NCBI GenBank assembly: GCA_034716495.1
Contig: JAYEHV010000029.1
Coordinates: 1 to 37,295, forward strand
From: Nanobdellota archaeon
Lineage (GTDB): Archaea; Nanobdellota; Nanobdellia; Pacearchaeales; GW2011-AR1
DNA: 37,295 nucleotides
Reading direction: 5' to 3'
Made by a program: the position numbers and the translations under genes. The notes beneath the pieces were generated by a model. The model saw only the letters and a program-made list of their open reading frames with translations, searched no databases and was not told the DNA's origin. Each line of letters opens with the position of its first letter. Positions within the stretch are counted from its first letter, which is position 1. Of the stretch, positions 3,038 through 33,200 are shown piece by piece.

Positions 3038-3345
3038 CCATCTTTGACTTTAGAGATTATCCTTTCTTTAGTATCGGAGGCTAAATTTGATATATTTATC
3101 TCGTTCTTGAATTTCTCTATTTTTTCATCCAAACTAAACTTCATATTGATATGTTCTCTGATACAGTTTGAGCAAAATCGTTCTAAACATTTAGGGCATT
3201 GTTCAAGACAATTATCGCATCCATCCTTATAACACTTTTGACATAAGGACATACCTTGACACTCTCTGCAAATCTTATTATTGCAAAACTCACAATCTTT
3301 CGCTTTCTTACCTAATTCATTATTACAATTGGCGCAATTACTCAT
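3019..3345 (-). CDS. Multi-zinc-finger (Cys-rich) protein; start refined to ATG at 3345
   Basis: The track ORF runs to 3462 but would overlap the upstream gene by 125 nt. An internal ATG (3345-3343, MSNCANC...) overlaps the upstream stop by only 8 nt (ATGAGTAA). CANC..CEFC..CREC..CQKC..CDNC..CPKC..CSNC gives seven CxxC pairs in about 70 aa. Confidence 0.6.
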   Translation of the reverse strand: MSNCANCNNELGKKAKDCEFCNNKICRECQGMSLCQKCYKDGCDNCLEQCPKCLERFCSNCIREHINMKFSLDEKIEKFKNEINISNLASDTKERIISKVKDGWFIEK

Positions 3346-3829
3346 TAGATATACCCTCAGCTCTTTCATAGAAATAAGCATATTTTCCTTCAGGATCTTT
3401 TCTTTCCATTTTGATAGTTTTTTCTTCTGCCAAAAAACAGTCTCGACAATACAGCTTTTCACTTAAAGAATTAGTTTCTTTAATTACATTACAATTAGGG
3501 CATTGATATTGAAACTTCTCAATTCCATTATTACTATAAATCTCCTCTACAACCTCAATTAAAGTATGTTGTTCTTTAACCTTCTCAGAAATCTTTATAA
3601 TTCTACACTTTTCATATAAGAGAATCATATTACAAGTTTTGCAGATGTAACCCGGACATACTAGTTTATTATTGATTTTAGCAAATATCTTTCTTAGAAT
3701 TATTTTACATTCAGGACATCTCCCTTTATGAGTTCTCTTCCAACTACCTTTCTTATCCTCTTTTCTCTCAGAAAAGTATTCACGCTTCTCTCCACTCTTA
3801 GTTATATAAACCTGCTTTTTTGTAGCCAT
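3338..3829 (-). CDS. Zinc-ribbon protein, function unknown
   Basis: 163 aa. CPEC...CKTC and CPNC...CRDC pairs, with a basic N-terminus. Confidence 0.6.
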   Translation of the reverse strand: MATKKQVYITKSGEKREYFSERKEDKKGSWKRTHKGRCPECKIILRKIFAKINNKLVCPGYICKTCNMILLYEKCRIIKISEKVKEQHTLIEVVEEIYSNNGIEKFQYQCPNCNVIKETNSLSEKLYCRDCFLAEEKTIKMERKDPEGKYAYFYERAEGISNE

Positions 3830-3831
3830 TT

Positions 3832-4365
3832 TTACAATTCACTCCTAACCTCACTATTTACAAAATTAATTAAGGTATTTTGTTGGTTTACCTTTTCATA
3901 ATGATATCCACATAATTTTAGACCGTTCTTAGTCCCTTTCACGGGTGTTTTATTACATCTTGTTCTTTTTGTTTCTCTAAATTGACAGCGTTCAATTAAG
4001 GGCCTAAAATTTCTTTTCGAGATTTTAATCTTGTTTCTAAGAATCTTGAGGATTTTACCTAATTGTTTCTTGCATTGCTTCTGATTCCCTAAGTCTAAAA
4101 ATGTTTTTGCAGAATCAGTAAGAGCCTCTAATAATGTTAAACTATTCCAGCCTAATGCAGGTGTTCGCTTCGGTTTCCAAGTAATTGTTTGATAATTTTC
4201 AATCCATAATACAAGTTCCTTAGCTTTTATAATCTCCCGATTTTGCTCAATAGGGAATACTAAATCACATTTCCCGCATTTATAATAATAATTCTGAGAT
4301 AAATCGTTTGTAATGAAAATTGAGCTACAGAAAGGACATTTGATTACTTGATAAGATTTTTTTAT
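3832..4365 (-). CDS. Zinc-ribbon protein with apparent non-canonical ATA start (absent from ORF track)
   Basis: The frame is open from 4386 to 3832, checked triplet by triplet. No in-frame ATG/GTG/TTG occurs until 38 codons before the stop. ATA at 4365-4363 lies 7 nt after AGGTGA (4378-4373). Encodes (I)KKSYQVIKCPFCSS...YKCGKC... plus a C-terminal RCQF..RCNK..LCGYH cluster. The stop sits 2 nt before the next ATG (3829). Confidence 0.55.
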   Translation of the reverse strand: MKKSYQVIKCPFCSSIFITNDLSQNYYYKCGKCDLVFPIEQNREIIKAKELVLWIENYQTITWKPKRTPALGWNSLTLLEALTDSAKTFLDLGNQKQCKKQLGKILKILRNKIKISKRNFRPLIERCQFRETKRTRCNKTPVKGTKNGLKLCGYHYEKVNQQNTLINFVNSEVRSEL

Positions 4366-4379
4366 TTTTTTTTCACCTG

Positions 4380-4730
4380 TTAAAAATTATCATCCCAATT
4401 TGGATCTTCGTATTCCCATCCATCATTCCAAGGAACAGGTTTTAATTCTACATAATGTTTGCACTTGCTTTTGCGTCCAAACATATAATCGTACATACTG
4501 GGGTATTTTAGACAAGAACCACCTAAAGGGTCTCCATCTACATAATTATTACATTTAAGACATAGAGCGATTCTTGCACACATTTCTGAAAAATAATCTT
4601 GCTGAGCCCATTCTTCTTCTTCTTGACATTTAGAACAGTACCAATCACCATACCAATGCATTGTATGGTTATGTTTCTTACAGATTTCTGGAATACTATT
4701 CATATCATCAATTATGTTCTCTCTACTCAA
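4380..4730 (-). CDS. Cys-rich protein, function unknown
   Basis: 116 aa. CKKHNH..CSKC..CLKC..C..KCKH clusters. Confidence 0.6.
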   Translation of the reverse strand: MSRENIIDDMNSIPEICKKHNHTMHWYGDWYCSKCQEEEEWAQQDYFSEMCARIALCLKCNNYVDGDPLGGSCLKYPSMYDYMFGRKSKCKHYVELKPVPWNDGWEYEDPNWDDNF

Positions 4731-4765
4731 ATTTTAACTCCTTTTTATTTTCACGATCTGTTATT

Positions 4766-5515
4766 TTACCATTCATCATCAAAATCATCATCAAAATCCG
4801 AGTCTTCCACCCACGGGGCCAACCATTGATGGTATTCAATACCCTTATCTACATATTCTATATGTAAAGGATGATCATTTTTCGTATATAGGGTAAAAGG
4901 TTTTACGAATAGATTTTCTGTGTTCTTTACAACTGATTTAAGAAAGGTCAGATTATATGCACACTGTCCTTGTTTCTCAACCATCCGTTCGGTCTTAGTA
5001 AATTCTCCTATTTGTCCTACGGAATAGTATTGTATTCCTATTGAATCATATTGGATAAAGAGGATGTCAGAATAAATCTTCGCCTTCTCAATGATCTTTT
5101 CTAATTTCCCTCTGTTAATCTCATATTTCTTATCATAATTAATTTTCCGCAAGTTAACGGTTGGAAGATGCTCAAGTTCCAAATCTAAAAGATATAATGT
5201 GTAGGATTCTCCATTTGAAGATAACTTTATGTAATCTTTCTTATCTCTGAGTTTTTTCTCAAGCATTACAGTGGTATCTTCGAGTTTATCTAAGATTTTA
5301 TTTAAATCATCTACATTCAGAGGAAATACTGTATTAATTGGTTCAGTAAGAATATCCTCCAACTTAATGTTTATAGTAGTAACCCTACTTGGATCCATTC
5401 CATCTATTATAATATCGCGCCCCTTGCATTGAATTTCAATCTCATCCATAAAATCCCCTAAAAAAATCATGACTTGTTTGAACAAGGGGTAATTCTTTAT
5501 TTCACTTTTTTCCAT
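4766..5515 (-). CDS. pcn: PCNA-like DNA sliding clamp, divergent paralogue 1
   Basis: 249 aa. IIIDGMDPSRVTTINIKL matches the PCNA ..amDssHvalv.l.L segment. Colinear with the 12988..13818 paralogue: SVGQIGEF/SSGQIGEM, AYNLTFLKSVVK/AYSLLFLKSILK, DHPLHIEY/DHPLKMIF, LAPW/LAPR. Acidic tail DSDFDDDFDDEW. Confidence 0.7.
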   Translation of the reverse strand: MEKSEIKNYPLFKQVMIFLGDFMDEIEIQCKGRDIIIDGMDPSRVTTINIKLEDILTEPINTVFPLNVDDLNKILDKLEDTTVMLEKKLRDKKDYIKLSSNGESYTLYLLDLELEHLPTVNLRKINYDKKYEINRGKLEKIIEKAKIYSDILFIQYDSIGIQYYSVGQIGEFTKTERMVEKQGQCAYNLTFLKSVVKNTENLFVKPFTLYTKNDHPLHIEYVDKGIEYHQWLAPWVEDSDFDDDFDDEW

Positions 5516-5542: not shown

Positions 5543-7225
5543 TCAATTTTCTTCTTTTTTTAGAATTTCATAAATTATTTTGGCTTCATGGACGGCATCA
5601 TCTAAAGCACGATGGGCTATTTTATATTCTTGGTCTGGAAAGAAGTATTCCCAAGACTCTTGAACAGAGGGAAGCTTTATACCATAATAATCATGAGGGA
5701 TTTTCAAAATATCCCTCGACTTTATCATAGGGTCCCAAAACAGCTCGTAAAACCTAAAGCCCTTATTTTTTAAAAACTTGATATCAAATTCTTGATTATA
5801 TGACGTAGTTGGAAAGGAATGAAATAGTTGTTGTAATTCCTTTCTCAGCTCTTTTAATGTTGGAGAACGATAAGCGACATCAGAATAGGACAAGTCAGAG
5901 TTATCAAAGATCCATGAATTGGGGTTTATTTCCCTACCTTTTTCATGGCACACTTTATTATAAATTTCCTCAATATGACCATCCTTTAAATTAAGCTTGC
6001 ATATTCCAATTTCTATAATACTATCAGTAAATATATCTAAACCTGTTGTTTCTAAATCAATTACTAAAATTTCTTCAAGCGGATCTCTTGGAGTTTCAAA
6101 CCAGAATTTTCTTGCTTCCTCATCAAAAGGAAAAACCTTATTTAAAATCTCTAATTTATGAGGTTGGTCTTCATTTTCTTTCTTATTTAGATGGAAAACC
6201 ATTTTAGCTAAATGTTTATTATAAGTAATTCCATATAATCTATTAACTTCCTCTAATTCCGCATCTATTGCATCTTCACACTCTGCAATTAATTTATCGG
6301 TTAAATCATTAAATAAAGCCTTTCGAAAAATGCGGTCAAACCTATAGGTTATAATCTCATTTCTAACGGTTTCACTATTAAACCATCTTAGAAATGATAA
6401 TTCCTCACTTGCTTTTTTAAAATGCTCTCGTAATGATTCCTCTCCTTTATTGCTAATTAAAATCATCGGATCCTCAGTGTGATTTATCGAATAAAAGATG
6501 ATTCCGGAATCCTTATCAGCCCATATTGGTTCTTCAGGTAATTGAGAATATTTATCATTTAAAAGCTTCAAGAATCTTTCCTTATTCTTTCCTAACACCT
6601 TTGAGAAGTCATAAGCTATGGCCTCTGGATATGTAACAAGAGGTAATTCCAATGAATTAAAGATTGATAATATTTTCTTTCTAAATTCTTTATTTGCTCC
6701 CTTTCTACAGCTCTCTATAGAATTGTAATGAAATTTATTGAATATATTTAGAAATCTTATCTTTGACTTCGTTATAGCGCTTGTTATACTCCTTCGAGAG
6801 AAATGTTCAGATAAATTAGAAGAGTCTCTTAAAAAATCCTTTCTAAATTGTTCTACGATATAATTTAACACGAAAATCTTAGCTTTAATTTTATCTTGCT
6901 CTACTTCTCTGTATTGATGATGAACCTCCCAACCTTTAGGCCAAAAGTCAGTTATTTGATTCTTATTTTTTATAATTTCTAAACTTCTTTTAAGTAATTC
7001 ATATAATTCAGAGAGTAATCCTGGTAAGACACGATCCATAACACCCCAAGATCTACTTAAGATTTGGTCAATCTCATAGTATAATCCTATGAAATCTTGT
7101 CGTGATTGCTCTAATTCTTTGTAATAGCGTGTGCTATTTTGATATTTTATTAATTCTTTCGTCTCTTTTTTGCTGAAATCAAAAGTGAAGTGCTTAAATT
7201 GTTGAACCATTTTTATCTCCTCCAT
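5543..7225 (-). CDS. DEDDh (DnaQ-like) 3'-5' exonuclease fused to a ~370-aa N-terminal region of unknown function
   Basis: 560 aa. The C-terminal ~190 aa carry ExoI VIDLETTGLD, ExoII SYNQEFDIKFL and ExoIII HRALDDAVHEAKI. I recognised no motif in the N-terminal two thirds. Confidence 0.8.
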   Translation of the reverse strand: MEEIKMVQQFKHFTFDFSKKETKELIKYQNSTRYYKELEQSRQDFIGLYYEIDQILSRSWGVMDRVLPGLLSELYELLKRSLEIIKNKNQITDFWPKGWEVHHQYREVEQDKIKAKIFVLNYIVEQFRKDFLRDSSNLSEHFSRRSITSAITKSKIRFLNIFNKFHYNSIESCRKGANKEFRKKILSIFNSLELPLVTYPEAIAYDFSKVLGKNKERFLKLLNDKYSQLPEEPIWADKDSGIIFYSINHTEDPMILISNKGEESLREHFKKASEELSFLRWFNSETVRNEIITYRFDRIFRKALFNDLTDKLIAECEDAIDAELEEVNRLYGITYNKHLAKMVFHLNKKENEDQPHKLEILNKVFPFDEEARKFWFETPRDPLEEILVIDLETTGLDIFTDSIIEIGICKLNLKDGHIEEIYNKVCHEKGREINPNSWIFDNSDLSYSDVAYRSPTLKELRKELQQLFHSFPTTSYNQEFDIKFLKNKGFRFYELFWDPMIKSRDILKIPHDYYGIKLPSVQESWEYFFPDQEYKIAHRALDDAVHEAKIIYEILKKEEN

Positions 7226-9123: not shown

Positions 9124-9444
9124 TTACACCTTTATTAGTTCTATTTTGTGTTGTAAGAGATTGAGATGGTCGTAAATCTCCCTTCCTTTTTCGGTAAGTC
9201 TGATTAATTTCTTTTGTTGATTAGGATGAATATAGATTTCAATCATTCTGTAATCTAAGAGAAATTGTTTTGCTCTGCGGAAAGAATTATAATAACTACC
9301 AGTATTCATGATTTTGTTAAAAGTATGATATTCAATACCCTCTGAAATGCTTGTATATTCACCTAGGATATTCATAGTATCCCAGAATCCCTTATTGCGA
9401 AAGATCTCCCGTAATTTTGCTAATTTCTCAAATATAGCTTTCAT
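9124..9444 (-). CDS. Winged-helix DNA-binding protein; start refined to ATG at 9444
   Basis: The track ORF (to 9534) would overlap the upstream gene by 107 nt. An internal ATG (MKAIFEKL) overlaps it by 17 nt. SFRRAKQFLLDYRMIEIYIHPNQQKKLIRLTEKGREIYDHL is a typical recognition-helix/wing/LTEKG pattern of MarR/PadR-like wHTH proteins. Confidence 0.55.
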   Translation of the reverse strand: MKAIFEKLAKLREIFRNKGFWDTMNILGEYTSISEGIEYHTFNKIMNTGSYYNSFRRAKQFLLDYRMIEIYIHPNQQKKLIRLTEKGREIYDHLNLLQHKIELIKV

Positions 9445-9757
9445 TACTAAGCCACTCCTTTCTTTGTTTCTTTGATTCCTCTTTAAAATTGGACATGACT
9501 TCAGGGTCTCGTACCCATCCTTTTCCATTTCCATTATTAGTCTTTTTCCTTTGGATTTGGCTATAATCTAAAGAATATTCTCCTTTACTTATTCTCAGAT
9601 ATTCGTGAAAGAGGATAAATCGAAAGCCTTCGCCTCGACTTGAAAAAAAACCTAATTCTTTTAGGCCATCAATTAAATCCCGTTGTTCATCGGTAATACT
9701 TATAGAGGCTATTTCAAATCCCGCCTTATCATTCATAATAGCTATAAGTTCAGGCAT
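9428..9757 (-). CDS. RHH-like DNA-binding protein (possible upstream extension to ATA at 9883)
   Basis: 109 aa from the ATG. ASISITDEQRDLIDGLKELGFFSSRGEGFRFIL fits a strand-helix-helix pattern. The frame stays open for 44 more codons upstream, to 9889. Confidence 0.5.
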   Translation of the reverse strand: MPELIAIMNDKAGFEIASISITDEQRDLIDGLKELGFFSSRGEGFRFILFHEYLRISKGEYSLDYSQIQRKKTNNGNGKGWVRDPEVMSNFKEESKKQRKEWLSNESYI

Positions 9758-9879
9758 ATTCTCTTCAAAAAAAATGTTTATTACCGCTCTTAACTGGGCG
9801 GACTTGACATTATTCGCCGCAGCATCCTCAGAGGTTAGCTCTGAGATTATACAACTAGGACTACGATAGGTAAATCTCT

Positions 9880-10134
9880 TTATAGTGGATCAACTCCGTA
9901 ATTTAGTAAAATATCGAAACATTCGCCTAATTGATCTTGAGTTAAGATTTCTAAACTCTTGTAGAGACTGGGAGGAATACCCATAGCAAAAACCTTAATC
10001 CAACTAAGAAGATATCTCTTAAAGGTCTGAAACTCCGCCTCCGATAGCGGTATTCCCTTCAGATACTTCAAGACAATAGGTTTTAAAACCTTGTCTCTCA
10101 TCCAAAAATCAAACTCTCCATCAAACTTTACCAT
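9880..10134 (-). CDS. Hypothetical protein
   Basis: 84 aa, in-array. Confidence 0.55.
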   Translation of the reverse strand: MVKFDGEFDFWMRDKVLKPIVLKYLKGIPLSEAEFQTFKRYLLSWIKVFAMGIPPSLYKSLEILTQDQLGECFDILLNYGVDPL

Positions 10135-12104: not shown

Positions 12105-12395
12105 CTACTCCAGTCTCTGGATTATTTTAAAAGTTTTAAAACCCCGCACGGGTTCATTGTTTTCATCGTGTTTCTCAATAGGAACACGCACAAAGTTCTT
12201 ATCATCAAAGACTTCTTCTAGTTCCGGCTCATTGAACTTTTGCAGGTTCTTTGCCATCCTTAGTTCCTTTAAGAGAAATTCGCGTGTTGCCACACGTACA
12301 AGCTCACTTCGACTTGGGAATAGCCCGCCCTCACCTATAAGCTTGTTGATTGCTTCTATGTATGATTCGGGGACATTACAAGTGACTATTTTTAT
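12105..12395 (-). CDS. RHH (CopG-family) protein, paralogue B, apparent ATA start
   Basis: The track ORF starts at GTG 12293, which would remove the beta-strand and helix 1. The open frame upstream reads (I)KIVTCNVPESYIEAINKLIGEGGLFPSRSELVRVATREFLLKEL, colinear with paralogue A. There is no ATG/GTG/TTG between 12294 and 12455. ATA at 12395-12393 lies 7 nt after GAGGTG (12408-12403). Confidence 0.6.
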   Translation of the reverse strand: MKIVTCNVPESYIEAINKLIGEGGLFPSRSELVRVATREFLLKELRMAKNLQKFNEPELEEVFDDKNFVRVPIEKHDENNEPVRGFKTFKIIQRLE

Positions 12396-12426: not shown

Positions 12427-12639
12427 TTATTTTCTCTCCTTTGTATTGCTTCTTGCTAACATTTTAAAATTGGATTCGTCAAGGTCCTGATAGAATTGAA
12501 GTTCCTTTGAGAGAAAGTCCCTTAAAGCGATCCTAATAGCTTCGCTTCTACTTGGATATATGCCAAGGTCATTGAGGACTTGGATTGCTGCCAAATATTT
12601 TTCAGGTAAATTAATTGTGATGATTTTAATTTTTCCCAC
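12427..12639 (-). CDS. RHH (CopG-family) protein, paralogue A
   Basis: 70 aa. KIKIITINLPEKYLAAIQVLNDLGIYPSRSEAIRIALRDFLSKEL carries the canonical CopG/Arc-type SRSEaIR signature. Confidence 0.75.
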   Translation of the reverse strand: MGKIKIITINLPEKYLAAIQVLNDLGIYPSRSEAIRIALRDFLSKELQFYQDLDESNFKMLARSNTKERK

Positions 12640-15730: not shown

Positions 15731-15935
15731 CCTTTCTTGTATCCTCTTTTACATTCGCGTTTAATTTGAGTTTCTTGATTTCTTGGTATTTCTCATCTAA
15801 AAGTAATCGAATAACTGATGTACTTGTTCTTTTTTTGTACCAAGATTTCACAACTTCGAGCTTTTCTTGATCTTCGCTTTTTAGATTCAATCTAATTTCT
15901 AAATTTTCACTAGAATCCTTCTTTTCATCAGCCAT
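15723..15935 (-). CDS. RHH-like protein, first gene of the left array
   Basis: 70 aa. LEIRLNLKSEDQEKLEVVKSWYKKRTSTSVIRLLLDEKY fits strand-helix-helix. Preceded by a 250-bp AT-rich non-coding region. Confidence 0.5.
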   Translation of the reverse strand: MADEKKDSSENLEIRLNLKSEDQEKLEVVKSWYKKRTSTSVIRLLLDEKYQEIKKLKLNANVKEDTRKVE

Positions 15936-16120
15936 AGTAAATCCACTTTTTTTCCGTTTTTTTAGGAGTTTTTTTTGTTGTAATTTTAGTTTATTTTTTA
16001 ACTATTTAAACTCTTCCATCGAAACTCCATCCATGCTACAAAAAGTACGGAGGATCAAAGATAAATAAGAAAAAAGACAGTAATATTTTATAAAAACAAA
16101 TCTTAAAAGAAGTATAAGGC

Positions 16121-16147
16121 TTAATTAATTACATATATTAATTAATT
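16121..16147. promoter_or_regulatory. Twin TTAATTAATT boxes (17-bp spacing) flanking a TATA-like ACATATA; candidate operator/promoter of the plus-strand RHH gene
   Basis: TTAATTAATT occurs at 16121-16130 and 16138-16147. Each contains the palindrome TTAATTAA. They lie 38-64 nt upstream of the ATG at 16185. Chance occurrence in AT-rich DNA is not excluded. Confidence 0.3.
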
Positions 16148-16184
16148 CATTAAATCAAATACTCTAATGTAAAAAGGTAATTTC

Positions 16185-16358
16185 ATGCCGGATATTGAAG
16201 ATGAAGAGAAAAAGGAAAGAGAGCTAAGAGTTTTACTAAAGAATAAATATTTTGCTAAACTTGAAATTATTAAGGATTTTTTAGGGATTGAAAATAACGC
16301 TGATATTATTCGATATTTAATTACTAAAGAATCAAGAGATATTGAAAAAACGTCATAA
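16185..16358 (+). CDS. Small RHH-like protein (57 aa); the only credible plus-strand gene
   Basis: MPDIEDEEKKERELRVLLKNKYFAKLEIIKDFLGIENNADIIRYLITKESRDIEKTS. AAGGT lies 6 nt upstream of the ATG. Strand-helix-helix pattern similar to 15723..15935. Below the track cutoff. Confidence 0.45.
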   Translation: MPDIEDEEKKERELRVLLKNKYFAKLEIIKDFLGIENNADIIRYLITKESRDIEKTS

Positions 16359-16501
16359 TTCGATAAATTTCAAAATGGATTATAAAACAAAATTAGGTAT
16401 TTTAAGGTAAGCCGACAATAATGGATCTTAAAAAATTATTACGAGTTGAAACTATTGAAATCTTAAGAAATAAAGATAATTTTGAAAAAAGAAAATCGTA
16501 A

Positions 16502-16696
16502 TTATAGTTGAAGTCCTATTGAGCTATAAAGCTCTTTTTGGTATTCTACTAAATTACGTAAATCTTGAATAATAAGCGCTCCAAGCTCTATATTTCTGTC
16601 TTTAGCAACTCTTTCTAACTTATTATGTAGTGTAATCGGAATATCTAAACATACCGGTTCCGTTTGCTTCTTTTGTACTGACTCGTTTTTGATTAT
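16502..16696 (-). CDS. RHH protein (64 aa) with no canonical start codon anywhere in frame; apparent ATA start
   Basis: The frame is open from the TAA at 16702-16700 to the TAA at 16504-16502 and contains no in-frame ATG/GTG/TTG (checked triplet by triplet). ATA at 16696-16694 lies 6 nt after GGGGA (16707-16703). Encodes (I)IKNESVQKKQTEPVCLDIPITLHNKLERVAKDRNIELGALIIQDLRNLVEYQKELYSSIGLQL, a clear strand-helix-helix pattern. Confidence 0.5.
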   Translation of the reverse strand: MIKNESVQKKQTEPVCLDIPITLHNKLERVAKDRNIELGALIIQDLRNLVEYQKELYSSIGLQL

Positions 16697-16747
16697 TTTT
16701 TATCCCCAATCCCTATTTTTGGTTTTAGATAATTTTGATAAAAATTG

Positions 16748-16759
16748 GTATTATATATA
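16748..16759 (-). promoter_or_regulatory. TATA-like box (GTATATATAATA on minus strand) upstream of the ATA-start RHH gene
   Basis: Lies 52-63 nt upstream of the proposed start. The position is compatible with an archaeal TATA box plus a short SD-containing leader. Sequence-only guess. Confidence 0.25.
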
Positions 16760-16874
16760 CTTTCAGCTTACTTTAGCTTCTGGGGGGCAGAGAGGGGTGA
16801 GTAAAAGTAAAAATAAAACTTTTTTATTCCAAAATTGAGTAGTTTTTGGGCCAGAAACATGAGAGATTTTAATT

Positions 16875-16988
16875 AAAAAAGGAGAGATCGGGAGGAGATT
16901 AGTGGAAAACTTGAGGATGTGAATATATAGTATGGCAGACTATTATGACAGCTCGATTTTATTATTTTGCTCTCCTCCTTGCGATCTC
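16875..16988 (-). terminator. Long-range hairpin (8-bp + 6-bp stems) followed by T6, just downstream of the right array
   Basis: GGAGGAGA (16891-16898) pairs with TCTCCTCC (16971-16978). GAGATC (16884-16889) pairs with GATCTC (16983-16988). On the minus-strand transcript the 3' arm is followed by CTCC and then TTTTTT (16880-16875). This is the only G+C-rich patch in the window. Confidence 0.35.
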
Positions 16989-16995
16989 ATGTCTT

Positions 16996-18711
16996 TTATG
17001 ATAATACTATTAACCTATCTATTACGGAATACAGGAAGAACTCAGTTAATTTACGATAAAATGCATATCCAAACATATTTATTGTCCATGTCTCATATTG
17101 GCTTTTATGATTGATTAAGTCAATTACTCCCGCCTCACGACCGTACCAATATCGAAACCAACGCCATTTATAGATATACACTCTATCCATGTCAAAATGC
17201 CTACATATATCCAGATCTAATTTATATTCTTTATTTTTCACATAGTCGGTATCTCTAAACTCATAATCAAATGTACCGATAAACATAAATCTCTTTGCCC
17301 TTGGTACATTAACCTCTGTGCTTTCTCTTTCAAATTTAACTAAAGAATAAAAATCTTGGATCGGTTGAGTAGGTTGATTAGCGCTATATAATAATTCTGA
17401 CTCATCAGAAATATAGTCATATTCTTGTAGATTACCCAAGAGTAAGGTATAAAGATTTAGAGCAGGGGAGGTTCTATAAACCATTGAAACAGAATAATCC
17501 CAGTTCAAATCGAGCTGATAGATATTTTGAGTTAGGAGATTATAATCTCTATCTCCATCCAATTGATCTTGTATTGAAGGTAATTTTATAATTCCTGCCT
17601 CTTTGCCATCGTCTTGAATGGCTTTGATAAAAAGACTTAAATTGGTTCTTGCAATCTCTATCTCCTCATCTGACGTAAGCGCAGAGAACAAATATAGCCC
17701 AGAGGATGCCTCCTCCTCTAAGTCATTCACTAAATTAATTGGTGTTTCCGCATCTACTTCGATAAAATCGACATAGGACCAAATACCATTCGCAATCCCC
17801 CACGCACGGATCTTTAGATAATATTGGTGAAAATATTGCGCATTATGAATACTGCAATAAAACTCTCCATCGCCTCCAATAGAAATCCCAAAATTAACGG
17901 AGTGATTTATGAGGTAATTCATTCTGTTTAAAAGCTTACTTGTGTAAGAAGAGCTATCAATATTTCTGGCGCGAAATACCATTGAATATGCAATATTATT
18001 TGCAGACCATCTATCCAATGTAGCGTTATCTGTTGGACATATATCAGGGGCCCCCCAAAATACTATTTGTGGATTGTTTTTAGGGGCAATAACAATTACT
18101 CGAATAGGTAAAATCATTAGGAAACTGCTTATAATAATACTTAGAATTAATCCTAATCGAAGATAAGGGTGGAGCTTAATCTTACGCTCGTTTCTTATCC
18201 TAATTAACTTAAATGAAAGAAGAGTTGCGTAAAGCGAGGGAATAAATAGGATGGAGAACTCTATGACTGTGAGGAAAGCGGGTTTTTGATGAAAGATCAA
18301 GCAAAACCCTGCAAATACTAACGCATTAAACAGGAGTAAAATAAGTTTTATCGTGCCTTTACCGTAAAACTTCGCTATAAATATAGAAGATACTATAGTT
18401 GCTACAAATAATCCTAAATATATTAATTCGATTAATGACGTAGGTAATGTTAATAAGAAAAATCCTAATACTACTCCAGATATGCTAATAAAGATTAGAG
18501 AAAGATACACTCTGAAGGAGCGTTTAGTTAATATGAAATAGATAAAAATAATCAATACCCCTCCATAAATAATCTCAACGAGGATTAAATCAATAATAGA
18601 GAACTCAGGAGAAAAAACAAAAAAAAGGGAGAAAATACTAATTTGAACTATTGCGAAGAAATATCCTGTAAGTAATGTTAGAATTATTTTATTCACTAAT
18701 AGTTTATTCAT
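16996..18711 (-). CDS. Polytopic membrane protein with a large C-terminal soluble domain, function unknown
   Basis: 571 aa. The first ~215 aa form about 8 hydrophobic helices (e.g. ILTLLTGYFFAIVQISIFSLFFVF, GGVLIIFIYFIL). The remaining ~350 aa are Trp/Tyr/Asp-rich and non-hydrophobic. Confidence 0.7.
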   Translation of the reverse strand: MNKLLVNKIILTLLTGYFFAIVQISIFSLFFVFSPEFSIIDLILVEIIYGGVLIIFIYFILTKRSFRVYLSLIFISISGVVLGFFLLTLPTSLIELIYLGLFVATIVSSIFIAKFYGKGTIKLILLLFNALVFAGFCLIFHQKPAFLTVIEFSILFIPSLYATLLSFKLIRIRNERKIKLHPYLRLGLILSIIISSFLMILPIRVIVIAPKNNPQIVFWGAPDICPTDNATLDRWSANNIAYSMVFRARNIDSSSYTSKLLNRMNYLINHSVNFGISIGGDGEFYCSIHNAQYFHQYYLKIRAWGIANGIWSYVDFIEVDAETPINLVNDLEEEASSGLYLFSALTSDEEIEIARTNLSLFIKAIQDDGKEAGIIKLPSIQDQLDGDRDYNLLTQNIYQLDLNWDYSVSMVYRTSPALNLYTLLLGNLQEYDYISDESELLYSANQPTQPIQDFYSLVKFERESTEVNVPRAKRFMFIGTFDYEFRDTDYVKNKEYKLDLDICRHFDMDRVYIYKWRWFRYWYGREAGVIDLINHKSQYETWTINMFGYAFYRKLTEFFLYSVIDRLIVLS

Positions 18712-20956: not shown

Positions 20957-23900
20957 TTAAAATTCTACTCGTTTCTTCTTATATTCGGACTCTAAGAGCT
21001 GTAATGCTTGACTAGGATTTAGATTTCTCTCTGTAATGCTAAGTTGCATTGCTTTATTGAAAATGTCTTTTGGCTTTTCATCTGTTCCGGCAATTTTTAA
21101 AGCAATATCCGTGTCTTTGTTGTCCCATGCCCAATTCTGCTGATATTTAAGCGCATTAATTAGCTCTCCCTTTTTCATCCTATGTCGTCCTACGATTTTC
21201 TCTTTCTGTGCTACTTTGTAGATTTGGTTTCTTGTTAGCTCATGTAATTTCTCTGTATGAGGTAATGTTCTAATCGTTGCTTTTGATTCTTTCTGAACGG
21301 CTTTTGGTGCTGATCCTTTAACTAAACCTCGCGCTCTTTTGTGTTGATAAAACTCAGAGGTTTGAAATTTCTCAGCATCTGTGCCTTCGGATCGCTTGAT
21401 AAATTGCTTTACCCAAGCCATTCTATCTTTCTTAGTAGGACATTCACGATCTCCTTGCGCACCATAGAATTGAGGGTATTCGTCTTGAAGTGTAAAATTA
21501 AACGCATTATATTCATTATAGGCTTTTCTTCTCTTTAGAATACGCTCTGCAAATCCTCCAAAATCGTCTTTATATTCAACGATAATAGGTTGTTCTTTTC
21601 CAACGGATACCCTCATAGCACGACCTGCGGTTTGCATAACTGAGATGGGACTATATTCTTGTGATGCCCCAGCACCTAAAATTACATCTAATGCAGGTAG
21701 ATCAAAGCCCTCACTAAGTAAAGACCCTGTGCCAATCGCGATATTTGTTTTTCCCGATTCAAGCATTTTCTTATTAGTTTCAATATCAGATTTCTTCATC
21801 TTTTTAAGTTTTCCGCTCGCATCTCTCTTCTTTCCCGCTAGTAATACTGGTTTAGTGTTTGGATACTCTTTTTCCAATAGTTCTTTTAGATCGTTTGCGT
21901 GATTCAATGATTTAGTGAATATAATGGTCTTTTTCCCTGCTGTATGCATTCTATTTGCGTGATCGATAATCAGATCGTTTCGCGCTTCGTTCTCCTCTAC
22001 TTGCGCTCTTACTTTAGCGGTAAATTTGTTTTTTATTCCATCTCGATCCATGATATAATCTATTTCAGATTCTAAGTCCTTGCGTTTTGGAATAGGAATA
22101 ACAACGACATTAGGTTTCATTAGCATTCCCCTATCTTGCGCTTGTTTGTACGTGATTGGAATCCTTTTATCTCCGATTTTCATAACTCTAAGGATGTCGT
22201 CTTGCGCATCTCTGCTTGGTGTAGCTGTGAGTCCAAATTTATGAATCGTCTTATTTTCGTCATAAACGCTATCAAAGCTTCTAGCTGTAATATGATGCGC
22301 TTCGTCTTGAATGATTATCTCTGATTCTCTGAGTATTTTTAGACAAATTTTATCCTTTTCGCTAAGTGTTTTTCCCTCCTCAATTTTTTTTATTGCACTA
22401 TGCATCCCTTGAATTGTTCCTACATTAATATCTGCTTCATCTGTCCAGCTAGGTGTGAAATTTTCGCTATCTAACAGTCCAATATTTACATCTTCAGGTA
22501 GGAATTTATCAAACGCCTCTTTCGCTTGGTCTCGAAGCGTACCTCGATGAACTAAGAAAAGTGAATCAACATCTACTTTTTTACCCGTTTTCTCTTCGTA
22601 TTTTTCTGCACCTTTTATAAATCCGCTTATAACTCCCGCCGCCATCATGGTTTTTCCCGTACCAGTCGGAGATACAATAAGTCCTTGCCCTTCAATCAAG
22701 CTTTCTAAAACTGCTTGCTTTTGATAGTTATAAAGGTCCACTCCTTTAAGTTCGGGATTGGAGACTGGAGATCGTTCTCTTGTATCTGCTACGGCCACAT
22801 CAAAATTATAGGAACGCTTTAACAACCAATAGGCTTTTGATAATAAGCCAATAGGCATAACATATTCCCCTTTATCGTTAATTTCTACGGCTGCATATAC
22901 CTCATCTTTTTTCCCGCGCTTTGACATCGTTCTTTTATAAGCTGTATTTAGAACATCCATTGCCAATTCTTGATCTTTTCTCTTATCACCTGGATTTTTG
23001 GAACCAGATTTGAGTACGACATTATTTCCATGAACCTCAAAAATAAATGCGTTCGAATCAGAGTGAAGAACAATCTCTTTTTGAATATTTGCTTTCTCTA
23101 ACCATTCTTTTTTAGTGTCGTTTTGACCAACGATAGAATAAAGAAGATCTTCTCTCCCATATCTATCGTTTCTATCTTTAAACTCGTCAATAACGCTTTC
23201 CAGATCGTCAGCATCTATAACAAATTGACTCCCTTGAACCCATCTGCCCCCATGTTTATCTCTAACTACTTGCAAGAAAGTCTCGTAGTTAGCGCCTCTC
23301 ACTTTGTAGTTTCCACCTTCGCCTATGTTATCCCAAGAGAGTAAAATTTTATCTCCGTTTTCGCTAAGTTTAACCATGATTGTAGCGCTTTTAGGGTCTT
23401 CTTTCCCCTTAAAAAATTCTTCGAAAAATGGATTCTCTATTGTTTCTACTGCTCCCTCCTCTTTCTTCAGTTGCTCTAAAGTTTTAAAATTAAACCTGTC
23501 AGCTTCGCTTAATTCCCCGTAAAAATCGTCATGCCAGCCCTCGTTTTCCGCAAGAATTTCATCCTCTACTAAGACTCGGAATATGCTGTATAATCGGTTT
23601 GCTTCTGCTCTTTCGTCTTCGATCTCTTTTTGGATTTTTTCTTTCTCTGAATTATCCTCAGACCACTCATATCTCTTTTGAAGATCGTCTATTGCGCTTA
23701 ATTTCGTGATCCATTGCTTATAGACCTCACTATCTACAAGTTTCTCTTCAATGATAATTCTCTGGATTTCTTTTTGCGAAATTCCAAATAGTTCAGGGTC
23801 TAATACTTCTTCCTGAATCCTCTTTTGAATTTCTTCAATTGAATCCTCTTTTGCCTCCTCGATATCTTCTTTAATAATTTCCTTTACTTCATCTTCGGTG

Positions 23901-24103
23901 ATTAAAGTTTTTGCTTTTCCCTCTTTCACTTGTTTTTTTGCTTTCTCGGAGAGTTCGGGTTTAACATGGACCTTTTTCTTATGGGAGCTTACAGTTTCAA
24001 CCTTACCCCCTTTAACGCGCTTATATTCATCTATCTGGCGCTCTTGGGTAGGATACCATTTAAGAAGGGAAAGTTGAGTTTTTTCTTTGGTTTTTTTTGC
24101 CAC
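20957..24103 (-). CDS. SF2 DEAH-box helicase (ResIII/XPB-UvsW-like core) with long N-terminal extension, shared N-terminal module and C-terminal HeH/Rho_N-like motif
   Basis: 1048 aa, GTG start. Q motif YNYQKQAV. Motif I VSPTGTGKT. Motif II IIQDEAHHI. Motif III GLTATPSR. Motif V LSEGFDLP. Motif VI QTAGRAMR. C-terminal LHELTRNQIYKVAQKEKIVGRHRMKKGELINAL resembles Rho_N/SAP helix-extended-helix. N-terminal YKRVKGGKVETVSSHKKKVHV...EGKAKTLI is the shared module. Confidence 0.85.
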   Translation of the reverse strand: MAKKTKEKTQLSLLKWYPTQERQIDEYKRVKGGKVETVSSHKKKVHVKPELSEKAKKQVKEGKAKTLITEDEVKEIIKEDIEEAKEDSIEEIQKRIQEEVLDPELFGISQKEIQRIIIEEKLVDSEVYKQWITKLSAIDDLQKRYEWSEDNSEKEKIQKEIEDERAEANRLYSIFRVLVEDEILAENEGWHDDFYGELSEADRFNFKTLEQLKKEEGAVETIENPFFEEFFKGKEDPKSATIMVKLSENGDKILLSWDNIGEGGNYKVRGANYETFLQVVRDKHGGRWVQGSQFVIDADDLESVIDEFKDRNDRYGREDLLYSIVGQNDTKKEWLEKANIQKEIVLHSDSNAFIFEVHGNNVVLKSGSKNPGDKRKDQELAMDVLNTAYKRTMSKRGKKDEVYAAVEINDKGEYVMPIGLLSKAYWLLKRSYNFDVAVADTRERSPVSNPELKGVDLYNYQKQAVLESLIEGQGLIVSPTGTGKTMMAAGVISGFIKGAEKYEEKTGKKVDVDSLFLVHRGTLRDQAKEAFDKFLPEDVNIGLLDSENFTPSWTDEADINVGTIQGMHSAIKKIEEGKTLSEKDKICLKILRESEIIIQDEAHHITARSFDSVYDENKTIHKFGLTATPSRDAQDDILRVMKIGDKRIPITYKQAQDRGMLMKPNVVVIPIPKRKDLESEIDYIMDRDGIKNKFTAKVRAQVEENEARNDLIIDHANRMHTAGKKTIIFTKSLNHANDLKELLEKEYPNTKPVLLAGKKRDASGKLKKMKKSDIETNKKMLESGKTNIAIGTGSLLSEGFDLPALDVILGAGASQEYSPISVMQTAGRAMRVSVGKEQPIIVEYKDDFGGFAERILKRRKAYNEYNAFNFTLQDEYPQFYGAQGDRECPTKKDRMAWVKQFIKRSEGTDAEKFQTSEFYQHKRARGLVKGSAPKAVQKESKATIRTLPHTEKLHELTRNQIYKVAQKEKIVGRHRMKKGELINALKYQQNWAWDNKDTDIALKIAGTDEKPKDIFNKAMQLSITERNLNPSQALQLLESEYKKKRVEF

Positions 24104-25650: not shown

Positions 25651-26871
25651 TTATATCACCAATTTTTTAGGTTTTGGAGGAAGATATTTCCTTACTTCGT
25701 CCTCCGTATAAGTATAATCTTTCAAACACCAAATCCCGCGCTCTATATTTTCAAATAACTCATCCTTATAGCTTGAAAGAGCAGAGCGTATTTTTTTTGC
25801 TTCTAATCCCGTAATTGCCACGATTTTTTGTATATTTACTACACCTTCTTGATGTAAAGCATTAAATATTTTGTCTTTATTCTGTAATGGTTGTAGGCTT
25901 ACTTCCTTTCGAGCAAACTCCCAGTCTAATTGTTCAATCGCTTTTACTAAATCGGTCCGCCTAACTTTTATTGTATAATCTTGCTCTATCTGATTTGCAA
26001 ACGGATATAAGAATCCTTTTAATTGTCCTCTGGTGAAATCACTCACAGAGCATTTTAATCTTTCCAACTCTGTTCGTAATGCATCTTTAAGAAGGCCAAG
26101 TAAAAAGGCTTCATCAATTGACCTATCAATCACTACATCATATTTTACCTGTTCTTTAGAGGAGTAGGGAACTTCAATCGTGGCCGTTTGACCGGTCTTC
26201 GCTTTAGCTAAACAAAATCTTAGAGCGTCAAAATTAAACCCTACTTGACCCTCCCATGTCGCTAATCGTAATAATTCTGATTGTTCTGGAGTGAAAATCT
26301 TATGAAACCAATTTAGATCATAATAACTTGTATAGACTTGTAATATTGAATTTTCTCTAAGAGTCGCATCTAAGCGCGAATATACTTGAACAGCAAAAAT
26401 AAAAAATATTATTCCATTTTTCTCATAAAGATCCTCTAATACATGCCTCGAAACACAGAATTGTTGTGTAATTTCGACATTATCCCCTGACATAGACCTT
26501 CGTGAATCTGTACCTTCACCAATAGCATCATCTACTACAATAACTAATACATGCTTACCCTCAAAATATTCGCTATATCGCTTATCGCCAATCACGCGCG
26601 GATCATTGGTTGCAACTACACTAATTAATCCTTCATAGTCAGGAATAGAGCGGAGTAATTCTACTAAATATCGGATTAAAACAGACTTGCCCGTCCCCTG
26701 CCCTCCTATAAAGGACATTGCTTTTAGAACCCATTCGTGAGGAGTATTCTCACATTTGAGAATATGTAATAATAATTCTTTGGGGTTTAATACCTCGTAA
26801 TCCTTCCCATTAACATTGATATTATGAGTGTTTAAAAATGGATTTTTACCTACTTGAACGAATCCTGGTAT
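25651..26871 (-). CDS. P-loop NTPase with C-terminal wHTH; N-terminus extended to an apparent ATA start
   Basis: Walker A GGQGTGKS and Walker B HVLVIVVDDA. C-terminal NIQKIVAITGLEAKKIRSALSSY is wHTH-like. The track start (26718) lies 5 residues before the P-loop. The frame is open for 52 more codons up to the TAA at 26877-26875, with no ATG/GTG/TTG. ATA at 26871-26869 is the second codon after that stop and lies 6 nt after GAGTGA. Confidence 0.65.
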   Translation of the reverse strand: MPGFVQVGKNPFLNTHNINVNGKDYEVLNPKELLLHILKCENTPHEWVLKAMSFIGGQGTGKSVLIRYLVELLRSIPDYEGLISVVATNDPRVIGDKRYSEYFEGKHVLVIVVDDAIGEGTDSRRSMSGDNVEITQQFCVSRHVLEDLYEKNGIIFFIFAVQVYSRLDATLRENSILQVYTSYYDLNWFHKIFTPEQSELLRLATWEGQVGFNFDALRFCLAKAKTGQTATIEVPYSSKEQVKYDVVIDRSIDEAFLLGLLKDALRTELERLKCSVSDFTRGQLKGFLYPFANQIEQDYTIKVRRTDLVKAIEQLDWEFARKEVSLQPLQNKDKIFNALHQEGVVNIQKIVAITGLEAKKIRSALSSYKDELFENIERGIWCLKDYTYTEDEVRKYLPPKPKKLVI

Positions 26872-29069: not shown

Positions 29070-29597
29070 TTATTTTCCTTTATTTAGATTTATATAATAT
29101 ATTTGAACAATCATACTCACTATGAAAAATAAGAATAGAAACTCCATAATGATATTTTCTGGATAGATTAACCACCATAACAGCAATATTAAGAAATAGA
29201 TTAACCATAAGATTGTATAGTTAAATATCTTATACCCTTTAATTTTGATTGATGCGAGTTTCTTTCCTACAATCATCATACAAACCGGAGCTACAATTCC
29301 AAAAATTATTGTTGTGTAGTCTAAAGCATCAAGATCAGACAAATTCACGAATCCTTCAAATATACCTAATGACCATAGAGAATATAGGAAGAATAGGATA
29401 TAAATAATGTATTTTAAGATCTTTCGTGTTCTTTTCTCTCGAGAATCTAATATTGAACCTAATGTGAGTGTCAGCATTGAGAAACTATAGGTTCTAATCA
29501 GCGAGAATGACGAGACATAGACTATCCAAATTATTAATAAAAGCATTAATGATAAAAATACATACCTAAGCATCTTTGCTGAATGTTGTGGGTTCAT
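29070..29597 (-). CDS. Multi-pass membrane protein (about 5-6 TM)
   Basis: 175 aa, almost entirely hydrophobic segments separated by short basic loops. 4-nt overlap with the upstream gene. Confidence 0.65.
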   Translation of the reverse strand: MNPQHSAKMLRYVFLSLMLLLIIWIVYVSSFSLIRTYSFSMLTLTLGSILDSREKRTRKILKYIIYILFFLYSLWSLGIFEGFVNLSDLDALDYTTIIFGIVAPVCMMIVGKKLASIKIKGYKIFNYTILWLIYFLILLLWWLIYPENIIMEFLFLFFIVSMIVQIYYINLNKGK

Positions 29598-30201: not shown

Positions 30202-33200
30202 CTATTTCCTCTTTCTCTTTTTATCTTTTTTTTTCCAAAATTGTAATTTCTTTAGGGATTCGGGTTTCGTTATCCCATAATAAATGATAACAAAGCCAAG
30301 TAAGGCCGCACCGGCGGGAATTAATAACCAAGCCGCATCCCAAATAACTAGTTTCTCAAATTCTATCCTTATTACATTAGTACCTTGTGCTAAATTGAAA
30401 TCAATTACTTGATAATAATGAACCCCATCAAGATCGTAAAGTTTTATATGAGTTAGAAATTCGCTAGGTGTTGAAATAGCGTTTAACTTGATATTTTCTT
30501 CGCTCTGAATGTAAAATTCAAGATTAACATCGTAAGCAGGATAATTACAAACGATTGTATATTCTACATATCCAGAGCCTTGTACTCTTTCAATTGAACT
30601 GATAGGATTTGTTTTAACTCTTAAATACGAGCTAGTGATTGACGAATCAAATCCAGAACATACAAAATAACCCTCACCTACACCATAATAATTCGTTCCG
30701 TAATGAACACCATCTAATTCCCAGCCCTCATCAGTAGGGACGATCCACGATTCAGAATATCTTTCATACTCTAAATACACATTATAATATTCGCTTAAAG
30801 TCTGGTAATTGCTTTCCGTAATAGTGAATGCGCCCTCGTTAATATATTGACTGATATTAGCGGTAGGGATTGAACTATTACCGTTTATGGTGAAGGATTG
30901 TACGGACGTGCTAAAAGAAATATTAGGAATTTCGAGATTATAAGTTTGAGAGGATTGAATAGCACTTAAACTCCAATTGTCCATATATACGCCATCGGAT
31001 CTAAGGGGAATTACGATGGTGACATTCTCTAATATTATATCTGACATGTAATTCACCCGAACTTCCGAGTATGTACCGTTATTTTCCAAAACTTCGTATG
31101 TAAGATTATAGTTTGGATTCACATCAAGTATGGCCTCGAAAAGATCGTTTATTTCTGTTTTTTGAGATAAATCAAACTTGTACTTGTCATTCTCAATAGT
31201 GAAATCATTACCAGAATAAATCGTTCCTGTTCGTAAATGTTCCATTTGATTGACCTCATTAATATCAAGATCTCCAACAAAATACCAATACTTATAATCC
31301 AATTCTGCTAGGAATAACTCACTAACTAAAACACTTGCCGTATCTGTTCTTGGTGTATTTGTAATTTGGGTTCTTGTTCTTAAATTATCTAAATACCTTA
31401 GTTGAACAGAGAAAGTATCCAAATTAACATAGGTAGAACCAATAAGAGATAAGATTTCGAGAGAATCTGAGTTAATATCATAATTGTAATTTGTACTTTG
31501 AGTTCCATCAAAATAATAATATGTGAAATTGTCAGGTATGTTTGTTAAATTTGCGCTATTAAAAGTTATAAATGTGAATGGAGAGCTTTTCTGAGTGAAA
31601 CTAAAATCGTAATTAACATAGTCAGAATAATCTACTGTCTTATTGATGTATAAAGAGGCATTCTCGATAAGTAAGTCAAATGTTAGCGAGCCCGCATGAT
31701 CTATAAGTAAGTCAAACGAATTTGCCTCAGTCTTATTTATTGTGAGGAGATTATTACTTACATTTACACCATTTACAGTTAAATTTACCAGACTTGAGTT
31801 AGTCACCACTTGAATAATTGGTAGAACCTCAAAACTCATAAGTTTCCAAGCGCCCATGTAACTCTCTGCTGTATCGTTAAACGAACAATTTATATGGTAA
31901 AATCCTTCGGTCCAGGTGATATTCATCAAAATATCAATATCGATCTCTCCTAATGCATCTGTAGTTGAAGATGTATTTACGAAAGTAATATTGTTGTGGT
32001 CGTAGATCGTGTAATTAATCGGTTTACCTTGGATTGGTTGATTATAAAGGTCTCTAAGCGAAATAGTTAAGTTTAGACTGGCATCTTGATCATAACTACT
32101 TTTTAGATTAATAATGTCCATGATTGTAGTCCTCTGAATATGGCATAAGTTAGTTATATTCATCCAATACGTATCGTTATACTCGTCTATCACTTTTATA
32201 CTTACATTATAGACCGTTTGAACGGGATAATTAATTGTAAAATTAAACTCGTATTGATAAAGAGGATATGTATCATTGTTGTATTCTTGAATGTAATCTG
32301 TGGAATTGTCGTAATATATCTCGATAATAGGTGCTGAGGACAGAACATTAAAATTTACAGTATTATTTGTATTTATGAATACAGGATTTTCATAACCAGC
32401 GGCTAGAGAAATACTTGGAATAACTGTATAATTTACGGCCCATAGTTCCCAATTTCCATGCGTATCAAAGAATTGTAATGTGAGATTATACAATCCAGAG
32501 GTTGTATTCCAGAAAGAAACGCTCTGAAGTGTATTGTTAATTAACGTTTCGTTGAAGATTACATTGGTTTGAGAATTTAGAGTCTGGTTTATTTCTACAT
32601 TGGAGATATATCGATCAGTCGCATTCCAGTAGATTGTTAAATTTTGATGCGAACCTAACAATGTATCGTCAATATAACAGTCATTTACATTATAGAAATC
32701 GCTATCAAAATCCCATAAAACCATATCATCGAAACTGACTTCACTTGGATTGCCGGCTAAATAAACCTCAAAATAATAGTCTAAAAATGTAGTTTTTGAA
32801 TTATTATTGAGGAAATCTGTTATGTTAAATGTGAGATCGCTACTAAATGACGTATTAGTAGTAAAATTATATATTAGCCATCCATCCTCACACTCCACCC
32901 CGATCCTATATAAAAACAATGAGGAATTAATAGAATTAGTAAAATTGTAAATTAGATAATCCGAGCTTTCTGTAAAGTTCATACTCCAATTCAAGATCCA
33001 ATTGCCTCTTGTTTTCTGCAAATAATCAATACTAAATACAGGATCAATTTTGAAATATTGATAAATTTCATTCCCCCCATAAAGATTTAAGCACTCAAAC
33101 GTAATAGTATAGTTCATATCTCTGATCTCTATAAGCCCATTAGTTATATTAAATATTAGATCAAAATCATCTACATCTGTGCTATTAAACTGAAAATTGT

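Follow-up and report, generated by a model that had tools for sequence, protein, structure and literature searches.

The window analysed here, a contig of 37,295 nt (GenBank JAYEHV010000029.1) that is probably an archaeal virus or plasmid, carries on its minus strand, at 3835..4365, an open reading frame (ORF) for a 177-residue zinc-ribbon protein with no canonical start codon (ATG, GTG or TTG) ahead of its ribbon. Comparison of this frame with its relatives makes it likely that the gene is functional and is translated from a near-cognate AUA codon behind a Shine-Dalgarno (SD) sequence, that at least three other genes of the contig are started by the same device, and that ATA or ATT serves in the same way in relatives. 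A real zinc-ribbon gene, an ATA start behind an SD, recurrence of this layout in the contig and loss of the gene to callers restricted to ATG, GTG and TTG had all been put forward from the letters of the window (the original prediction), and each is borne out by the homologues, homologous loci and protein records described below.

On the minus strand, the frame with codon low coordinates at 3832+3n runs unbroken from 4386 down to its TAA (3834-3832), giving 184 sense codons and the stop. It is closed on its 5′ side by an in-frame TGA TAA at 4392-4387, and the ATG of the next gene (3829-3827) lies 2 nt past its TAA. A list of ORFs with canonical starts is empty between 3829 and 4380, and the first in-frame canonical start, GTG 3942-3940, is codon 149 of the open frame. 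The coordinates of this frame, of AGGTGA, of ATA and of the next ATG in the original prediction match the sequence, the sole small discrepancy being that this GTG had been placed 38 codons from the end, where 36 remain. The 16 codons from the closing stops to the first Cys are TTT TTA ACA GGT GAA AAA AAA ATA AAA AAA TCT TAT CAA GTA ATC AAA, followed by TGT CCT TTC TGT; none of the 16 is canonical, and ATA (4363..4365) is the sole near-cognate codon in the 5′ region whose distance from an SD is plausible. The SD-like AGGTGA (4373..4378), a motif common to canonical genes of the contig, is separated from it by the 7-nt spacer AAAAAAA (4372-4366). The TAA stop (4380..4382) of the upstream 116-aa Cys-rich gene (4730..4380) lies 14 nt 5′ of ATA, and the interval 4365..4376 also holds an out-of-frame GTG (4376-4374) that runs into nine A residues (A9, 4373-4365). 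At the ATG and GTG genes of the contig, AGGTGA or GGTGA stands 6-8 nt 5′ of the start, as at 29597 (AGGTGAgaaaaaATG), 18711 (AGGTGAtaaaatATG), 9081 (AGGTGAggttgcATG), 25647 (GGTGAtataaaaaATG) and 11133 (GAGGTGttataaGTG). Since the 7-nt spacing falls within this range, ATA 4365 has the ribosome binding site of a canonical gene of this contig.

Read from ATA, the 177-codon product is IKKSYQVIKCPFC...YKCGKC...RCQF...RCNK...LCGYH, and the stretch ahead of its first canonical codon includes MKKSYQVIKCPFCSSIFITNDLSQNYYYK. When the window was shuffled 300 times, 3 of the shuffled sequences had an open frame of 184 codons or longer, and the probability that 148 codons lack ATG, GTG and TTG is about 0.012 at the codon usage of the contig. 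By themselves these statistics are only suggestive of a gene, and it is the homologues that establish the gene as real. A search of 5.8 billion proteins gave 18 of them, with E values from 4.9e-65 to 2.9e-23, and their alignments contain 30 invariant columns. The core of a central helical hairpin, RTPALGW..LTLLEA..DS, is invariant, and the C-terminal portion follows the conserved pattern C..E T..T R C N..P...C..H, a C..C..C..H cluster. An N-terminal CxxC...CxxC zinc ribbon is present in every full-length homologue; in the window it reads CPFC...CGKC, with the spacing CxxC-x(19)-CxxC, and begins nine codons past ATA. Because the ribbon is conserved in this way, the start must lie upstream of it. 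On the evidence of these alignments the ORF is a real gene under constraint. No match of the protein to itself was found among the 5.8 billion, so none of the contributing sources has annotated the gene; NCBI does have entries for two further genes of this contig, P0019 (an ATPase) and P0032 (a ribbon-helix-helix, RHH, protein).

The DNA of eleven distinct homologous loci was compared at the start of the zinc-ribbon gene. In locus L007 the sequence is GAGGTG tatataa ATA ACA GAG ATT..., with a TAA immediately 5′ of ATA, and in L009 it is GGAGAGG ttttt ATA ACG..., with ATA overlapping the upstream TAA (ATAA); neither has a canonical start before the ribbon. L016 (GAGGTG tagacaa ATA ACA GAG ATT...) has an SD-less ATG nine codons upstream, within the preceding gene. 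L002, L003 and L011 have AAGGTG taaaaac ATT TAT..., again with no canonical start before the ribbon, and L001 has GGGTGA ttaaa ATA, with a GTG and a TTG also in frame. Canonical starts are found in L008, L017 and L004 (SD and TTG) and in L018/L019 and L010 (ATG). Conservation of ATA and of its SD spacing among orthologous elements, which had been proposed as a check, is thus seen as SD + 5-7 nt + ATA in L007, L016, L009 and L001 and as SD + 7 nt + ATT in L002. The converse pattern, with ATG in all orthologues and ATA in this copy only, is not what the loci have, as the orthologues carry ATA, ATT, TTG and ATG, 4-11 codons before the first Cys (nine in the window). The weak starts ATA, ATT and TTG predominate across the family, and ATA or ATT is held at the SD-defined position in several diverged lineages with 55-65% protein identity. 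The proteins of L007, L009, L002 and L008 (P0004-P0007) have been cut back to internal starts by gene callers. The GGTG element is conserved even though, in L007, L016, L008 and L002, the GTG inside it is not in frame, which argues that GGTG is an SD and not a start. Upstream neighbours vary by locus (PAPS reductase in L008, TGT in L018, others elsewhere), so that the zinc-ribbon protein appears as an independent cistron and not as a frameshifted extension of its neighbour; fusion to the upstream gene by frameshifting was accordingly rejected, the frame of the window being in addition closed by TGA TAA. The genes 3′ of the zinc-ribbon gene in two of these loci also open with a stop followed immediately by ATA: at 1189 in L007 behind GAGGTG + 7 nt, where the product is radical-SAM-like and a conserved KIGLFDIDS motif precedes the start that was called, and at 1324 in L002 behind GGGTG + 6 nt.

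The recurrence of the layout that had been noted at 12395 (GAGGTG + 7 nt), 16696 (GGGGA + 6 nt) and 26871 (GAGTGA + 6 nt) was found at all three positions, each on the minus strand, and at each the ATA falls in the Met1 column of homologous proteins. The first of these genes to be considered, at 25654..26871, encodes a 406-aa ATPase with a Walker-A motif. Its frame opens one codon before ATA 26871-26869, and its first ATG, 26718, is 52 codons in. Most of 12 aligned homologues start with MPGY exactly at ATA CCA GGA TTC of the window, and the N-terminal 52 residues are conserved, with near-invariant positions. The nearest relative, in L012/L013 (57% identity), reads GGAGGGAttagattaat ATG CCA TCG TTC at the Met1 site. 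In L100 (NCBI GCA_004196275.1, ~935-1030) Met1 is instead ATT, behind GAGGT + 8 nt and with no canonical alternative, giving (M)PAYITIDKRYTNW. The NCBI self-match P0019 was deposited as 355 aa from ATG 26718, a truncation of the kind expected of callers restricted to canonical starts.

The second gene, at 12108..12395, encodes a 96-aa RHH protein of CopG/Arc type, with ATA 12395-12393 preceded by GAGGTG at 12408-12403. Pfam RHH_1 matches residues 8-41 of the product at 22.1 bits, above the gathering cutoff of 20.5. The first canonical codon, GTG 12293, is codon 35, and a start there would lose most of the domain. There are 95 homologues, mostly of 96 aa, and 15 aligned homologues start with MKIVTVNVPESY, with Met1 (MKIVTVN) in the column of ATA 12395. 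In the NCBI entry P0032 (113 aa) this gene already starts with an ATA, but with the one at 12446, which lies 17 codons 5′ of the Met1-aligned ATA. Among the best 80 genomic relatives, nearly all of them Asgard metagenome-assembled genomes (MAGs), the start codon is ATG in 69, TTG in 7, GTG in 3, ATT in 1 and ATA in none; by this tally, ATA at the RHH start is not a general habit of those 80 genomes. An RHH gene at ~1522 of L077 (a Promethearchaeia MAG) has ATT at the orthologous Met1, independently of the ATT of L100. A paralogous RHH gene of 70 aa (12427-12639, minus strand) lies directly 5′ of the ATA-led one, with a GTG right after TAG and no visible SD.

The third gene (16505..16696) encodes 64 aa and has no ATG, GTG or TTG anywhere in its ORF; GGGGA at 16707-16703 precedes ATA 16696-16694. 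A search of 1.8 billion representatives gave the homologue P0128 (68 aa, E 3e-5), and a second homologue is P0129; both share a C-terminal ELYxSIGLxL with the product of the window. In a MAFFT alignment ATA 16696 stands in the Met1 column of P0128, with MIKM there and (ATA)-I-K-N in the window. The 64-aa product is also similar to 21 stretches of P0127 (E 6e-31), a 4,007-aa protein that seems to be built as one giant tandem array of the small domain. The surrounding region, 15935-16996, is the sole sizeable stretch of the contig with no large minus-strand ORF; AT skew changes sign there, and it may be a regulatory switch region. Within it, a divergently oriented 57-aa ORF with RHH-like sequence lies on the plus strand (16185-16358). 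The open frames 16939->16763 and 16369->16142 on the minus strand are unlikely to be genes, and the second of them is antisense to the plus-strand ORF. Elsewhere, a 153-codon open frame on the minus strand (9428-9889) has its first ATG, 9757, 44 codons in, and an ATA (9883-9881) that overlaps the upstream TAA (9882-9880) as ATAA, as in L009; this ATA may be a fifth start, which would give a product of 151 aa.

Enrichment of ATA behind SDs was assessed in the window and the non-redundant related loci, using ORFs of at least 60 codons and counting as leader codons those that lie 8 or more codons ahead of the first canonical start. Of 44 leader codons with an SD pentamer 4-9 nt upstream, 9 were ATA, against 1.8 expected from leader composition (5-fold), and no other codon stood out; three of the nine come from the zinc-ribbon family, so that the count is not fully independent of the choice of loci. 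Two ATA candidates in L012 (6366 and 12178) were counted as canonical, since a TTG directly follows each at proper SD spacing. Internal ATA codons of three aligned genes match mainly I, V or L in homologues, and one in the RHH protein aligns with an invariant Ile column, while Met matches come essentially from start columns. ATA is thus read as Ile in elongation, the code being standard and only initiation near-cognate, and a reassigned code with ATA as Met was ruled out on the same grounds. No tRNA genes were found in the contig, so no special initiator is encoded by the element, and no Rfam families were found in it either.

Based on these comparisons, the AGGUGA element 7 nt upstream would position the small ribosomal subunit as it does at the canonical genes of the element, and initiation would take place at the near-cognate AUA (4365-4363), the initiator Met-tRNA (anticodon CAU) pairing with its first two bases and the mismatch at the third being tolerated. 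The product would start with Met (MKKSYQV...) and would probably be made at a low rate. The same AUA device would serve at least three other genes of the contig, for two small DNA-binding-type proteins and the ATPase, and, as ATA or ATT, it would also be found in members of these gene families carried by independent metagenomic contigs. The original prediction took the recurrence to argue for 'deliberate' AUA initiation, a word that remains an inference.

Several points weigh against translation from AUA. Ribosome initiation at ATA 4365, the insertion of Met and low expression are deductions from sequence. The start of L001 is ambiguous, given the in-frame GTG and TTG beside its ATA. Compared with the SD at 4365, those at 16696 (GGGGA) and 26871 (GAGTGA) are weaker. 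Since the closest relatives of the ATPase and RHH genes have ATG, with no ATA among the 80 RHH starts, the ATAs of the window are a derived state, and could in principle be recent damage. In addition, the sequence GTG AAA AAA AAA TAA at 4376 is only one base out of frame, and a single extra A would give MKKKIKKSYQVIKCPFC (MKKKIKKSYQV).

Recent damage would mean that the ATAs are decayed ATG codons (G-to-A) in a defective copy whose genes are no longer translated and in which other lesions have not yet accumulated. The ATG at the 26871 site in the nearest relative, the canonical Met1 codons of RHH in 79 of 80 genomes and the fact that all four changes would be the same transition are consistent with such decay. 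With 4 of ~55 starts changed, there is nevertheless not one nonsense or frameshift lesion in ~12,000 codons, and all ORFs are intact, including those of 2,359 and 1,048 codons; neutral decay at this proportion of starts would have broken many genes, so the pattern is unlike neutral decay. Furthermore, ahead of the first canonical codon the N-terminal protein sequences of the ATPase and RHH genes have stayed conserved, ATA or ATT has been kept in several diverged zinc-ribbon lineages, and the ATT of L100 is independent. We consider decay improbable. Global C-to-T damage was rejected separately, as it would yield many TGG-to-stop changes and none were seen.

A second alternative grants that the protein is made, though not specifically from ATA 4365, by loose re-initiation after the TAA at 4382-4380 or from another near-cognate codon such as ATC 4347-4345. 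The upstream stop is indeed just 14 nt from ATA, and the ATAA overlaps in L009 and at candidate 9883 are typical of coupling. Against this, ATC 4347 sits 25 nt from the SD, ATA 16696 is preceded by ~300 nt with no obvious upstream gene, and what recurs in the homologues is, beyond a mere open frame, ATA itself, at SD + 5-7 nt and downstream of different genes (PAPS reductase, TGT and others). Such loose initiation hardly seems likely to account for the gene in place of initiation at the AUA.

A third alternative takes GTG 4376-4374 as the true start, with the frame restored within the A9 run, either because the genome has A10, or by polymerase slippage, or by a ribosomal -1 shift on A AAA AAA. 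Runs of nine or more A residues are known slippage sites, poly-A slippage or -1 frameshifting is known in dnaX, IS elements and endosymbiont genes, and the position of the A9 between an out-of-frame GTG and the ORF resembles these cases; in L001, moreover, the GTG embedded in GGTG is in frame. The likeness goes no further than this. The GTG of the window is preceded by TTTTTAACAG, where there is no SD, and is itself part of AGGTGA, which elsewhere in the contig is the SD. Four homologous loci, L007, L016, L008 and L002, have the corresponding GTG in another frame and lack an A-run or other homopolymer between SD and ribbon, yet the ribbon is conserved, so that the run is not a conserved feature and homologues are still left with no canonical start. 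Nor is there such a run in the required position at the three other ATA sites, where this device would be of no help and is not needed. A frame restored from GTG is therefore very improbable as the origin of the protein. A base-call or assembly error at 4363, with ATG as the true codon, is extremely improbable even for a contig from a metagenome assembly, as it would need to have struck the third base of four start codons in the contig and the start codons of homologues from unrelated samples.

As to the zinc-ribbon protein itself, Pfam Zn_Ribbon_TF (PF08271) gave 19 bits (E 0.001), under the gathering cutoff of 29 bits and thus outside the family, and Zn_ribbon_RPB9 also scored below cutoff (E 0.008). 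The four-Cys N-terminal ribbon of the window resembles those of TFIIB and RPB9 (RNA polymerase M) at the level of the fold only. An AF2 model (pLDDT 76.8, pTM 0.37) combines a ribbon rich in beta structure with a long hairpin of helices and, at the C-terminus, a small zinc knuckle and a helix. Foldseek gave no matches to it in the PDB at E < 0.1, only weak similarity to RNA polymerase I subunit ribbons, and the RTPALGW..LTLLEA hairpin and the C-terminal CCCH cluster had no named relatives in Pfam or in the PDB fold comparison. That the protein may bind nucleic acid or act as a regulator is only a guess. Scans of IMG/VR and of GTDB genomes with the zinc-ribbon alignment gave no match.

The nature of the element bears on the initiation apparatus that would act on these starts. 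All of its large ORFs are on the minus strand, its GC content is ~32%, and no terminal repeats were found. Upstream of the Cys-rich genes, at 4766-5515 on the minus strand, it encodes a 249-aa PCNA-type clamp (Pfam PCNA_N, 21.0 bits against a cutoff of 20.3). Since this clamp is of archaeal/eukaryal type it points to an archaeal host, and together with the distribution of the RHH protein it makes assignment of the element to the domain Archaea reasonably supported. The contig was deposited in a 'Nanoarchaeota archaeon' MAG, many Asgard MAGs have a gene that matches its RHH protein at 60-72% identity, and a related contig of 37,251 nt (L085) was binned as 'Patescibacteria'; judged by these relationships, the bin assignments of both contigs look unreliable. 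Neither megablast of 3300-5000 nor tblastn of the ATPase gave a match among 50,697 phage records, and the only match of ten large proteins in PHROGs was to a DNA-polymerase-exonuclease.

Near-cognate initiation is established in bacteria, where infC, the classic case, and pcnB of E. coli start with AUU, and translation table 11 includes AUU, AUA, AUC and CUG among its rare initiators. The genes of the contig would resemble these in having a start that is positioned by an SD, is one base off AUG, is read by initiator tRNA and has a low output. They differ in using AUA, the rarest annotated start, in its density (at least 4 of ~55 genes in 37 kb) and its conservation or recurrence in relatives, and in belonging to an element with an archaeal/eukaryal-type PCNA, on which an archaeal initiation apparatus probably acts. 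The likeness to infC is drawn for the type of start and not for its autoregulatory logic. AUA initiates in mitochondria (codes 2, 3 and 5) as well, but there it is also Met in elongation, whereas the internal ATA codons of the contig align with Ile, Val or Leu. AUA initiation has been put at ~1-2% of AUG in E. coli, and near-cognate codons are occasionally annotated as starts (10.1101/063800). Descriptions of archaea generally give AUG, GUG and UUG as their starts (PMC4705826), and a literature search on archaea, DPANN and archaeal viruses found no relevant report of ATA/AUA starts. The predicted mechanism would therefore be of a known kind; out of the ordinary would be the codon used, how densely it occurs in a single small genome, and its reappearance at the orthologous starts of relatives.

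This group of archaeal-type, PCNA-encoding mobile elements appears to make unusually frequent use of near-cognate AUA/AUU initiation, which has the look of a tolerated weak-start strategy, possibly a selected one. A wider generalization, that a group of archaeal mobile elements with Asgard or DPANN hosts uses AUA/AUU regularly, in ~5-10% of genes and preferentially for small regulators or genes whose products are needed in low amount, is offered only tentatively and seems to us rather doubtful. Were it true, the cause could be a permissive aIF1 or initiator tRNA of the host, a translational throttle, or a sensor of host initiation fidelity, and with an Asgard host such elements would offer a natural window on start-codon strictness on the archaeal side of the eukaryotic lineage. 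The four AUA starts and the AUA/AUU starts of relatives, each with an orthologous AUG or UUG counterpart, form a comparative set for the stringency of archaeal start selection, which also bears on weak starts as a means of keeping regulators scarce.

For annotation the consequences are immediate. On this contig the zinc-ribbon gene was missed by every pipeline that feeds a collection of 5.8 billion proteins, and other genes are misannotated, the ATPase being truncated (355 instead of 406 aa) and the RHH protein over-extended (113 instead of 96 aa). In the 'dark matter' of archaeal virus genomes, whose genes mostly lack a known function, systematic loss of ATA- and ATT-led genes biases gene catalogues and the building of protein families. 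The annotation should give 3835-4365 an ATA start, carry the ATPase back to 26871, move the start of the RHH gene to 12395 and include a 64-aa gene at 16505-16696.

The other large ORFs of the contig include one with an RNase_T/DnaQ-like exonuclease domain (5543-7225) and one for a ResIII/DEAD helicase (20957-24103), and a radical-SAM protein is encoded as well. The longest extends from 30202 to 37281 on the minus strand, starts 14 nt from the end of the contig, and encodes a protein of 2,359 aa with a sialidase-like carbohydrate-binding module, which may be a giant adhesin or a tail-fibre-like protein. Relatives of this protein exceed 2,500 aa in L014 and 1,100 aa in L012.

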